From the NCBI GenBank assembly GCA_963692945.1, contig OY843585.1, forward strand, positions 150,001 through 182,000: a stretch of DNA of 32,000 nucleotides, given 5' to 3'. This stretch comes from Bdellovibrionales bacterium. Its GTDB lineage: Bacteria > Bdellovibrionota > Bdellovibrionia > Bdellovibrionales > UBA1609. The position numbers and the translations under genes are program-made. The number at the start of each line of letters is the position of its first letter. Position 1 is the stretch's first letter. The notes under the pieces are model-generated. The model was not told the origin of the DNA and did not search any database. It saw only the letters and a program-made list of their open reading frames with translations. Of this stretch, positions 26,510 through 27,089 are shown piece after piece.

Positions 26510-26672
26510 AATCTCTCTTTCAAAATAAATTTCTTAACCACAAAGATATAATATAAATTTAAATAAAAATCCATAAGCTATTTATATGTATGTAAAAATT
26601 TCCTGTTTGTTTATTTTAGATCCGATGAACTTAAGGGTTTATGTCCTAACAGGAAAAAAATTCATTTTCATT

Positions 26673-26699
26673 GAAAAAATAAAAAGCTTTCGCTTCCCC
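26673..26699 (-). terminator. Second (distal, truncated) copy of the tRNA-spacer terminator hairpin
   Basis: Part of the 90-nt direct repeat 26670-26759 = 26929-27018. The GGGGAAGC-GAAA-GCTTTT stem-loop on the minus strand is followed by a T-run. Confidence 0.3.
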
Positions 26700-26738
26700 T
26701 TTTTTTAATTTAGTAAATATTTATTTTTCCGTGTAAAA

Positions 26739-26898
26739 TGGCGGAGAGGGAGGGATTCGCCTACTACATTCCCTCGCATCCAGCTCACTCATTGCGTAGG
26801 CTCACCTCAATCACTAAGAAAAACTTCCTGTTTTTCTTCCCAGTATTCCTTGCTCCTAAAGTCGCAAGCAACACAGGTCGTTCTTTCGTTTCGAATCC
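26739..26898 (-). repeat. tRNA-tagged module, copy A: 139-nt GC-rich core (26760-26898) plus a 21-nt copy of the tRNA-Ser 3' end (26739-26759)
   Basis: The core is nearly identical to 30227-30365 and 30409-30547 in inverted orientation. TGGCGGAGAGGGAGGGATTCG is identical to 26998-27018 of the intact tRNA-Ser gene. Confidence 0.9.
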
Positions 26899-26997
26899 TC
26901 AACCTCTACCTATTTAAAGCAGTAATAAATTAAAAAAATAGAAAGCTTTCGCTTCCCCTTTTTTTAATTTAGTAAATATTTATTTTTCCGTGTAAAA
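26899..26997 (-). repeat. Spacer module downstream of tRNA-Ser, shared with the tRNA-Asn locus; contains a terminator-like hairpin at 26932-26958
   Basis: Near-identical in inverted orientation to 30126-30226. The hairpin GGGGAAGC/GAAA/GCTTTC is flanked by an A-run and a T-run. Confidence 0.8.
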
Positions 26998-27089
26998 TGG
27001 CGGAGAGGGAGGGATTCGAACCCTCGGTACGGTTTAACCCGCACGGCTATTTAGCAAACAGCTGGTTTCAGCCTCTCACCCACCTCTCC
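26998..27089 (-). tRNA. tRNA-Ser (anticodon GCU), CCA encoded
   Basis: Folded by hand: acceptor GGAGAGG/CCTCTCC, anticodon stem GCTGT/ATAGC with loop TTGCTAA, long variable arm GTGCGG-GTTAAA-CCGTAC, and T-arm GAGGG-TTCGAAT-CCCTC. Confidence 0.95.

Follow-up and report, generated by a model that had tools for sequence, protein, structure and literature searches.

A mobile, protein-less and structured family of small elements at the T-loop of bacterial tRNA genes

Transfer RNA (tRNA) genes are classic landing sites of bacterial mobile DNA, and to our knowledge every known case of insertion into a tRNA gene relies on a protein recombinase with one fixed specificity. A stretch of 32,000 nucleotides (nt) from a Bdellovibrionales bacterium (GenBank assembly GCA_963692945.1, contig OY843585.1, positions 150,001–182,000 of the forward strand; hereafter, the window) raises the question of how one and the same body of sequence can come to be joined to the 3′ ends of different tRNAs. 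A nearly invariant core stands there beside tRNA-Ser on one strand and beside tRNA-Asn on the other, each time followed by a copy of the end of its own tRNA. An earlier reading made from the letters alone (the sequence-only reading) had noticed this arrangement, had framed it as an integrative element with an att core, and had offered two explanations: either the att core is swapped while the body is conserved, or the tag is copied from the neighbouring tRNA. We find that the copies belong to a mobile, protein-less, structured family that is specific for the position between U55 and C56 (U55|C56) of tRNA genes, and that has a target-complementary 5′ segment and a helix bridging its junction with the tRNA.

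Copies in the window and in other genomes

All copies share one order: the tRNA gene, a leader of 14–150 nt (often a tRNA trailer with its terminator), a guide of 9–13 nt, a structured core of ~105–210 nt and a tag, for a total element size of ~150–260 nt. The guide is the reverse complement of U54–C65/66 of the adjacent tRNA, and the tag (~21 bases) repeats the same tRNA from C56 to its 3′ end, so that the tRNA stays intact. Guide and tag vary between copies; what is conserved is a gene-less, folded nucleic acid of ~120 nt. Every copy ends ...GTAGTAGG|C56, and the junction reads ...TGTAG(T/G)AGG|C56 in all copies, across nine tRNA species. The sequence-only reading was right that the junction has the same tRNA coordinate in both loci of the window, and it gave that coordinate in two versions, of which the one placing it after GTTC has to be dropped: identity begins at C56, and the junction is U55|C56.

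For the Ser locus, a 99-nt spacer, a 139-nt core and a 21-nt tag had been described, and ARAGORN, a repeat search and alignment bear out all of the coordinates. The intact tRNA-Ser(GCU) gene (26998–27089, minus strand; ARAGORN, with an Rfam tRNA match of 52.6 bits) ends in the proximal copy of the tag, its last 21 nt from C56 to CCA (27018–26998). On the same strand follow the spacer, or leader (26899–26997, by repeat search and alignment), with an intrinsic terminator hairpin at 26957–26940; the 5′ guide GGATTCG(AA), reverse complement of tRNA-Ser U54–C62 (26888–26900); and the core (26760–26898, from covariance model and folds). Within the core, the Pa hairpin with its GAC...GGA loop (26877–26839) and the Pb hairpin with its GGA loop (26838–26816) are followed by AGTGA...GAGG, the 5′ strand of helix P4 (inside GAGCCTACGCAATGAG, 26803–26788), the P5 hairpin and AATGTAGTAGG, the 3′ end of the core (26770–26760). 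The distal tag, again 21 nt from C56 to CCA of tRNA-Ser, occupies 26739–26759 (identical to 26998–27018). Our covariance model, R1, matches this copy at 26739–26901 with 95 bits (E 4e-21). As had also been seen, the distal tag belongs to a longer direct repeat of 90 nt, in which 26670–26759 repeats 26929–27018 with 98% identity, 2 mismatches and an offset of 259. This repeat consists of the 21-nt tag plus 69 nt and stops 3–4 nt past the T-run of the terminator. The first 69 nt of the spacer are native-type tRNA-Ser trailer with terminator, and ~30 nt more precede the guide; judged by their sequence, the 69 nt common to both copies of the repeat are tRNA-Ser trailer and terminator.

The Asn locus lies on the plus strand. 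Behind the intact tRNA-Asn(GUU) (30050–30125; ARAGORN, Rfam) and a spacer (30126–30224) stand two copies in tandem, B1 (30225–30386; R1 match 30224–30386, 94.6 bits) and B2 (30407–30568; R1 match 30406–30568, 83.2 bits). B1 has its guide, GGACTTGAA, at 30227–30235, its core up to 30365 and its tag at 30366–30386; in B2 the guide is at 30409–30417, the core reaches 30547 and the tag, with one T-to-C change, is at 30548–30568. The leader of B2 is only 22 nt, a 30-nt direct repeat comprises the tag plus TTTACAAAA, and the native tRNA-Asn trailer comes next after B2. The repeat search found the Ser and Asn spacers (26900–26997 versus 30127–30224) to be 99% complementary over 98 nt, in inverted orientation, and the hairpin that they had been said to share is indeed present at 26940–26957 and 30167–30184. 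Ser core plus tag (26736–26899) is 94% identical to B1 (30226–30389) over 164 nt, and 26736–26898 is 92% identical to B2 (30409–30571). A three-way alignment agrees with the earlier count of only two substitutions between the Ser core and B1 outside the 5′ 7-mer; this 7-mer is in both loci the reverse complement of the first 7 nt of its own tag (Ser, GGATTCG/CGAATCC; Asn, GGACTTG/CAAGTCC). The window contains a 25-nt core pattern three times, and 100 shuffles contain it 0 times. Because it is 99% identical to the Ser spacer, the B1 spacer must be derived from the tRNA-Ser trailer. This leader begins at most 4 nt from CCA, and both tags and the guide are Asn-type.

Orthologous loci in relatives allowed the empty sites to be seen. 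Its SecA marks the source organism as a Bdellovibrionota/Oligoflexia-like MAG (metagenome-assembled genome). We compared loci around SecA from sister genomes with 82–90% SecA identity (L001, L003–L006), which keep the gene order PhaR, tRNA-Ser(GCU), tRNA-Arg, Glu-synthase-like, tRNA-Asn, trypsin-like. Neither spacer nor core is present at tRNA-Ser or tRNA-Asn of these genomes, and the covariance model of the element had zero matches in their loci. The copies at Ser and Asn are therefore insertions, since sister genomes of the same gene order have both tRNAs without spacer or core. The comparison, which the sequence-only reading had proposed, also makes the native flanks recognisable. In L005 and L006 the tRNA-Ser trailer consists of 32 nt, AAAAAAAGG, a hairpin, a T-run and AATG...; the flank past the distal Ser tag is similar and has the same layout, for which reason we regard the distal Ser copy and its flank as native. 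Past the B2 tag, TTTACAAAA ... TTTTTTATCA resembles the native tRNA-Asn trailer of L001, interrupted by an inverted-repeat element.

The covariance model yielded 19 copies in 13 loci, from metagenome-assembled genomes (MAGs) of Bdellovibrionales, Omnitrophota and Planctomycetia and from Joint Genome Institute (JGI) metagenome contigs. The phyla with copies are Bdellovibrionota, Omnitrophota and Planctomycetota, plus unassigned metagenome contigs; there are ~16 distinct sequences in all, and the carriers are uncultured MAGs or metagenome contigs. This survey of the core beside tRNAs was made at the level of the family, with the source genome covered through the window. When one genome per species was scanned with the junction pattern GTAGTAGGCRARTCCCTCC, five of the 24 matches, namely L027, L029, L024, L016 and L030, were true relatives by sequence and model score; the other 19 had only 19–22 nt of the pattern in common and lay in loci devoid of tRNAs. 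Another eight true loci, together with three loci due to chance, came from metagenomes scanned with GAGCCTACGCA N{12,42} TGTAGTAGGC. A 21-nt pattern from the 5′ part of the core had 0 matches over the genome contigs, a consequence of the lineage-specific nature of this part. Wherever the upstream region is present, the copy comes after a tRNA or tRNA tag and is followed by that tRNA's 3′ end from C56. What the sequence-only reading had seen at two tRNAs, one conserved body on different 3′ ends, thus extends to nine tRNA species and to other genomes, and its expectation that the tag always equals the 3′ end of the adjacent tRNA and always starts at C56 is true of the family. Nor did either of the outcomes that it had named as fatal come about: copies adjoin tRNAs, and the same architecture in other phyla excludes a private segmental duplication. 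The same architecture in unrelated genomes makes this a family and not a local duplication.

The nine hosts are Ser, Asn, Ala, Arg(TCG), Arg(TCT), Tyr, Met, Leu and, probably, Trp. Outside the window, copies stand at tRNA-Asn on a Bdellovibrionales chromosome (L027), tRNA-Ala(GGC) in Omnitrophota (L029), tRNA-Arg(TCG) in Planctomycetia (L016), tRNA-Tyr (L033, equal to L041), tRNA-Met (L034), tRNA-Arg(TCT), between tRNA-Arg and tRNA-His (L036), tRNA-Leu(CAG) (L038 and L040), an unidentified tRNA (L037), and again tRNA-Leu(CAG) in L039, where the contig ends before the tRNA. In L039 (1236 nt, the whole contig) at least four units of tag, terminator and core form a tandem array; units 1, 2 and 4 are alike, many compensated changes set unit 3 apart, the guide of unit 4 is followed by an insertion of 45 nt rich in hairpins, and the last tag is cut off at 11 nt. 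The probable Trp cases are L024 (Omnitrophota, 1–145) and L030 (Planctomycetia, 1727–1550, minus strand), in which the contig likewise ends before the tRNA and element plus tag lie upstream of secE, presumably in the usual tRNA-Trp–secE–nusG place. Both have a second, guide-only fragment (GGTGGGATTCAAAGCAAG / GCGGGATTCGAATAA) ~80 nt past the tag, right before the secE start. In L027, an array of REP-like hairpin repeats (CTGAAAG...CTTTCAG TTAAC; 4625–4715 and 4753–4930) directly follows the truncated tag, and two of these repeats sit in the P5 loop of the core; either this loop tolerates large insertions, or the L027 copy is dead.

Several other features surround the copies in the window. tRNA-Arg(ACG) lies at 27247–27323 on the plus strand (ARAGORN). 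Between PhaR and the tRNA-Ser element stands a gene for a 438-amino acid (aa) ankyrin-repeat protein (25193–26509, minus strand), which is a lineage-specific insertion beside the same tRNA-Ser, because in L001 PhaR directly follows tRNA-Ser(GCU) at ~60 nt; other relatives have different ankyrin genes there. Between TTTACAAAA and TTTTTTATCA, a separate inverted-repeat element (30578–30946) interrupts the native tRNA-Asn trailer. It is bounded by CTCTAGTTCA ... TGAACTAGAG, TGAACTAGAG recurs at 30688, internal direct repeats are present (CTAGAGAAAAACTGCTGTTTTTCGCATATTA three times), and the orthologous L001 locus is without the element. The trypsin-like open reading frame (ORF) at 30963–31916 (minus strand) encodes 317 aa in the window, and the database protein P0121 from the same 1.56-Mb contig, of 459 aa, is 100% identical over the ORF.

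The fold, the guide and the tag

RNAalifold, applied to an unbiased MAFFT alignment of 12 copies, gave three helices, P1, P4 and P5. P1 is the guide paired with tag positions 57–64, P5 is a hairpin, and the conserved P4 pairs GCCUAC with GUAGG plus C56. Because P4 includes C56, the junction between element and tRNA lies inside this helix, which stacks on P1. In the MAFFT alignment 92% of cells pair, versus 27–45% with slid partners; nine pairs have changes on both sides, and the covariation score is 0.296 versus 0.14, with none of 500 shuffles scoring higher. Constrained folds gave the same architecture in all 16 copies, with 31 G·U among 639 pairs on the tRNA-sense strand. The only variant of P4, GCCUGC in L039, makes a G·U pair on the tRNA-sense strand and would be a C-A mismatch on the other. 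Read in tRNA sense, the consensus after the guide is GAAGCRAG..GAACG, Pa with a GACNNNNNGGA loop and Pb, often with a (C)AGGA(Y)G loop, and then AGUGAACG.RGGGGA, GCCUAC, GCA, AY, GA, P5, GA, RU, GUA, GUAGG, the junction and C56.

In the orthologous tRNA-Leu loci L038 and L040, the cores are 74% identical and the flanks are 87% identical. A 7-bp stem is nevertheless fully compensated between them (GUUUUGC/GCAAAAC versus GGUUGCC/GGCAACC), an example of the full compensation that the P5 and P2 stems show between members. Since the 7-bp stem is compensated although the core diverges more than the flanks, we conclude from the modelled structures that selection maintains the body as a folded single strand, whether of RNA or of single-stranded DNA, and that it is neither a decaying remnant nor a set of duplex protein-binding sites. 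The family thereby shows the conserved secondary structure with compensatory substitutions that is generally asked of a structured RNA. A coding reading of the ORF at 30207–30569 was rejected: it has no Pfam match, close copies differ by indels whose lengths are not divisible by three, and the substitutions are stem-compensating. A hammerhead or other known ribozyme was likewise considered, in view of a similar three-way junction with the element junction at the stem III/I boundary, and set aside because the CUGANGA and GAAA cores are absent and there is no Rfam match.

The guide is a reverse complement and not a direct copy of the T-arm, as follows from non-palindromic T-loops, in which it reads ATTTGAA for TTCAAAT and ACTTGAA for TTCAAGT. 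It also varies with the T-stem (CCCTC, CCTTC, CCTGA, CCTAC, CCCAC). An ungapped matrix of guides against tags discriminates poorly (8.5 of 10 for the own tag versus 7.8 for others) because T-arms are so alike, and column-wise covariation is the meaningful test. Where tag and tRNA mismatch (B2, L037, L039), the guide matches the tRNA, and it carries AA opposite U54–U55, which the tag is without; these cases hint (n = 3, not significant) that the real partner of the guide is the intact T-arm.

GGA is exposed in two or three hairpin loops per element (AACAGGAUGUU, GCUGGAUGC, UUAGGAGC; in the window at 30296–30300, 30343–30349 and 30265–30272), with equivalents in L034, L037–L040 and L027. To judge by their motif, these loops resemble CsrA/RsmA binding sites.

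The direct repeats all begin at C56, with lengths of 14, 18, 19, 19, 21, 21, 21, 21, 23, 24, 30, 58, at least 63, and 90 nt. Most stop at the tRNA 3′ end ± 3 nt. Two long ones (the Ser locus and L039) stop just past the T-run of the terminator, where the tRNA transcript would end, and long repeats ending at terminators are compatible with an RNA 3′ end. Two loci are informative about the origin of each end. In L016, CCA is encoded by other tRNA genes of the host and by the distal tags, though not by the proximal tRNA-Arg; L029 is the opposite case, its distal tag being without CCA like another tRNA of that host. In these two loci the distal copy appears to be native, and the proximal 3′ end can be foreign. 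Such ends fit the import of a ready-made unit, possibly by homologous recombination through tRNA plus tag. We rejected the possibility that tags are copied from mature tRNA: the distal tag of L029 is without CCA and tags run on into native flank, so that tags are gene-derived.

Remnants accompany some copies. In L016, 10 nt of the 3′ end of a core lie within the 58-nt repeat, and guide-only fragments are found in L024, L030 and L039. The second unit of L016 (1815–1650, minus strand) consists of these 10 nt (GTGTAGGAGG) plus 52 nt of filler, partly like an inverted copy of the local GCAAAT-rich trailer, and is flanked by the 58-nt direct repeat, which is the tag plus 37 nt of trailer. Insertion of the IS91 type after GTTC and insertion of the IS200/IS605 type were both rejected, as neither makes duplications and the conserved left-end target motif is absent.

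A proposed mechanism and its rivals

With moderate confidence, we favour the reading that these copies form an undescribed family of small mobile elements, non-coding and T-loop-specific, that target tRNA genes and move as a folded strand. We read the element as choosing its tRNA by base pairing and leaving that tRNA intact. Guide and P4 would act as a built-in splint: the guide would bind the 3′ half of the T-arm, and P4 would hold the 3′ end of the element (...GUAGUAGG) against C56. The element would be transcribed by read-through from the tRNA, the folded strand most likely being the read-through transcript, and this strand would recognise the T-arm of a tRNA gene or transcript through base pairing. 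A new copy might then arise through target-primed or template-switch copying of the folded strand, a step that would fix the 3′ junction at C56 and give target-type tags on both sides. The duplication would start at C56 and stop variably, at the tRNA 3′ end or the terminator end, wherever the pairing strand ended. In the joining step the RNA might be its own catalyst, or the catalyst might be a polymerase or recombinase whose gene lies elsewhere; to pass from genome to genome at the same tRNA, the element would need no more than homologous recombination across the conserved tRNA and tag.

Several observations weigh against this proposal. An intrinsic terminator lies between tRNA and core in ~5 of 12 loci and would limit read-through, although read-through appears plausible at the loci without an intervening terminator (L016, L036, L040); no promoter-like site was found before the core. 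The fold could equally form in single-stranded DNA. Remnants truncated at the 5′ end (L016, B2) and at the 3′ end (L024, L030, L039) both occur, so truncation is not specific for reverse transcription. The guide of B1 is Asn-type despite its Ser-derived leader, for which selection or gene conversion from B2 must be invoked. The difference in CCA at the proximal ends of L016 and L029 is predicted by integrase/attP exchange or homologous import, not by pure target duplication. Finally, the sample is small (~16 distinct sequences), with the source genome represented by the window. The two explanations first offered for the window, an att core swapped on a conserved body and copying of the tag from the neighbouring tRNA, are not cleanly separated by the data: the tags and 5′ 7-mer of the Asn locus are Asn-type though its spacer is Ser trailer, which favours a tag taken from the neighbouring tRNA, and the foreign-looking tRNA-proximal 3′ ends of L016 and L029 favour a ready-made unit imported by recombination.

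A bolder version, which we consider unlikely, is that of a self-targeting mobile RNA, whose splint would join its own 3′-terminal G to C56 of a tRNA gene or transcript and which would be copied into DNA without an element-encoded protein; joining might proceed by ribozyme-like transesterification, or by an R-loop resolved by host enzymes. If true, this RNA would be a programmable, protein-free bacterial counterpart of retrozymes and of group-I-type reverse splicing, its target reset by changing ~10 nt.

An integrase offers a more conventional account, which we hold to be possible though improbable. On this account the copies are miniature elements, similar to cis-mobilizable elements (CIMEs) or miniature inverted-repeat transposable elements (MITEs), left from or parasitic on a tyrosine-integrase island specific for the tRNA T-loop; spacer and core would be attP arms, the tags attL and attR, and the integrase would be encoded elsewhere. 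A block of identity starting at C56 and spanning 18–24 nt in most loci suits it well, such a block from T-loop to tRNA 3′ end reportedly having been described by Williams in 2002 as the classic signature of T-loop-type tRNA integrases. Tandem arrays such as L039 and the Asn locus of the window are known for integrase elements, spacer plus core (~240 bp) is about the size of a lambda-type attP, and a native distal end combined with a proximal 3′ end that departs from the host's CCA usage (L016, L029) is as expected of attL = B-O-P′. However, none of the 13 loci, in at least three phyla, has an integrase or a shared protein. Pfam found no integrase, reverse transcriptase or transposase among the neighbours, with a few kb visible per locus and a distant helper therefore possible, and an all-against-all comparison of ORFs found no family common to unrelated loci. 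The neighbours are housekeeping genes, which in the window encode an ankyrin protein, PhaR, a protein with a Glu-synthase domain and one that is trypsin-like, and elsewhere include those for cupin, LexA, release factor (RF), RNase R, PhaR and secE. All 19 copies are small, with no full-length, integrase-bearing relative among them. Nothing in the phage and plasmid collections matched spacer, core or tag in distant blastn searches, and viral contigs scanned with core patterns gave 0 matches. Freely varying but compensated stems, conserved loops and junctions, and strand-specific G·U pairs do not resemble the arms of attP, which bind protein. If a Ser-derived element had crossed over reciprocally into tRNA-Asn, a hybrid tRNA would be expected, whereas both Asn tags are Asn-type. 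A target-complementary guide 110–140 nt from the crossover and repeats of 58–90 nt ending at terminators are left unexplained. The framing as an integrative element with an att core, with which the sequence-only reading began, is thus not upheld: there is no integrase at any locus, the body is modelled as a folded single strand, and its 5′ end covaries with the target.

If the folded strand were DNA, the copies might be recombination sites similar to the attC sites of integrons, with exchange of one strand at U55|C56 by a recombinase, the guide and tag re-creating the right half of the T-arm site and P4 supplying the left half. This we judge to be quite unlikely. In its favour, the 5′ arm is an inverted copy of the right half-site of the target, ~110–140 nt before the crossover, and R″ of attC stands in the same relation to the GTTRRRY with which it recombines; the junction lies within a helix, stems vary while structure is kept, and arrays of units exist (L039). 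Such a site needs no transcription and is compatible with terminators upstream of the core. Against it, no integron-type integrase or other recombinase is nearby, and there are no cassettes or ORFs between units. Searches of element sequences and loci for the integron R″/R′ boxes (RYYYAAC ... GTTRRRY), IntI and cassettes found none. The copies have long conserved blocks of primary sequence (GAGCCTACGCAAYGAG, AGTGAACG, GARTGTAGTAGG), such as attC sites do not have, and the hybrid tRNA expected of the Ser-to-Asn case is as much of a problem here.

More doubtful again is a small RNA gene of the host, such as a CsrA/RsmA-type sponge, co-transcribed with tRNAs, in which the repeated tRNA end would serve only as a closing helix and as a processing or stability signal. 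Such a gene would owe its spread to horizontal transfer and to homologous recombination across the conserved tRNA. In support, members from different phyla have structure and loop motifs in common, and many members have GGA in two or three hairpin loops, including ACAGGAUGU, which we take to be a CsrA SELEX-type motif (systematic evolution of ligands by exponential enrichment). One copy has tRNA-Arg and tRNA-His as its neighbours within a tRNA operon, from which RNase P would free it, and foreign proximal with native distal 3′ ends are compatible with recombination-mediated import. However, the GGA loops are missing in L016, L033, L029 and L036, the distribution is patchy and rare, and sister genomes have empty sites. 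Nine tRNA hosts and tandem arrays indicate selfish mobility, and copies at new tRNA species whose guide and tag both match are beyond what recombination by itself can produce. A local artefact, that is, chance similarity or a recent Ser/Asn segmental duplication followed by gene conversion from the tRNAs, might be suspected from two nearly identical inverted repeats only 3.3 kb apart but is refuted by the same architecture with other tRNAs in unrelated genomes, by the 0 matches in shuffles and by sister genomes without the element at both loci; some homogenisation between the Ser and Asn loci by gene conversion is nevertheless likely.

Returning to the folded-strand proposal, if the guide really selects the target, the family would be a minimal, naturally reprogrammable insertion system and a new class of structured RNA or DNA, a candidate for catalysis or for a dedicated partner enzyme. 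It also accounts for a class of "partial tRNA" fragments that confuse tRNA annotation, and the signature GAGCCTACGCA...TGTAGTAGG|C56 and the covariance model are tools for surveying it.

Comparison with known systems

With Rfam 15, cmscan found only tRNAs in the whole window, and nothing else in the region at E up to 5 or in eight other loci at E up to 1, and a search of the literature turned up no description of such an element. The only inverted repeat of the element is that of guide and tag, one arm of which is target sequence, and there are no terminal inverted repeats intrinsic to the element; duplications of variable length (14 to 90 nt) do not fit a MITE or DDE transposon. We treat the family as a new kind of element, its mechanism to be established, because recombinase and transposase are missing, as are R boxes and terminal inverted repeats with a fixed duplication, and because it matches no intron or ribozyme model.

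In small size, want of protein, precise 3′ junction, variable duplications, truncated copies and tandem units, the family is similar to short interspersed nuclear elements (SINEs) and retrozymes; it differs in that no reverse transcriptase partner was found nearby and in having neither poly(A) nor a known ribozyme motif. We know of no element class of this sort in bacteria. Dada DNA transposons, reportedly described by Kojima and Jurka in 2013 as targeting small-RNA genes, offer another parallel, in that insertion into a small-RNA gene goes together with an intact version, supplied or preserved, of the part that is interrupted. The targets of these eukaryotic elements are tRNA and small nuclear RNA (snRNA) genes, which are restored by a gene fragment that the element brings along (PMC8869645). 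Dada elements have a DDE transposase, terminal inverted repeats and fixed short target duplications, none of which is seen in the bacterial family.

Islands and prophages with tRNA-targeting tyrosine integrases of the T-loop class, and CIMEs, share with the family insertion at the T-loop, a bracketing repeat of the tRNA 3′ end, a regenerated tRNA and tandem accretion. In contrast to them, the family has no integrase in or near any copy, is ~150–260 nt long, has a folded body and a 5′ segment antisense to its target, occurs as one body lineage on nine tRNA species, and has some repeats that extend through the terminator. The attC sites of integrons are alike as folded single strands whose 5′ arm is an inverted copy of the sequence just beyond the crossover, as well as in variable stems with kept structure and in forming arrays; the family differs from them in being without IntI, R-box consensus (RYYYAAC/GTTRRRY) and gene cassettes, in its long conserved blocks, and in having a tRNA gene as its partner site.

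A short sequence that is complementary to the target beside the insertion point, and that tracks the target, is also found in group I introns (internal guide sequence (IGS), P1/P10), group II introns (exon- and intron-binding sites, EBS/IBS), the guides of IS200/IS605 TnpA and the bridge RNA of IS110. Compared with group I and II introns, the core of our family is too small and has no Rfam match, and compared with IS200/IS605 and IS110 there is no TnpA or IS110 recombinase. Unlike in the intron, IS605 or bridge-RNA systems, pairing in the family described here covers ~10 nt 3′ of the junction and 2 nt 5′ of it.

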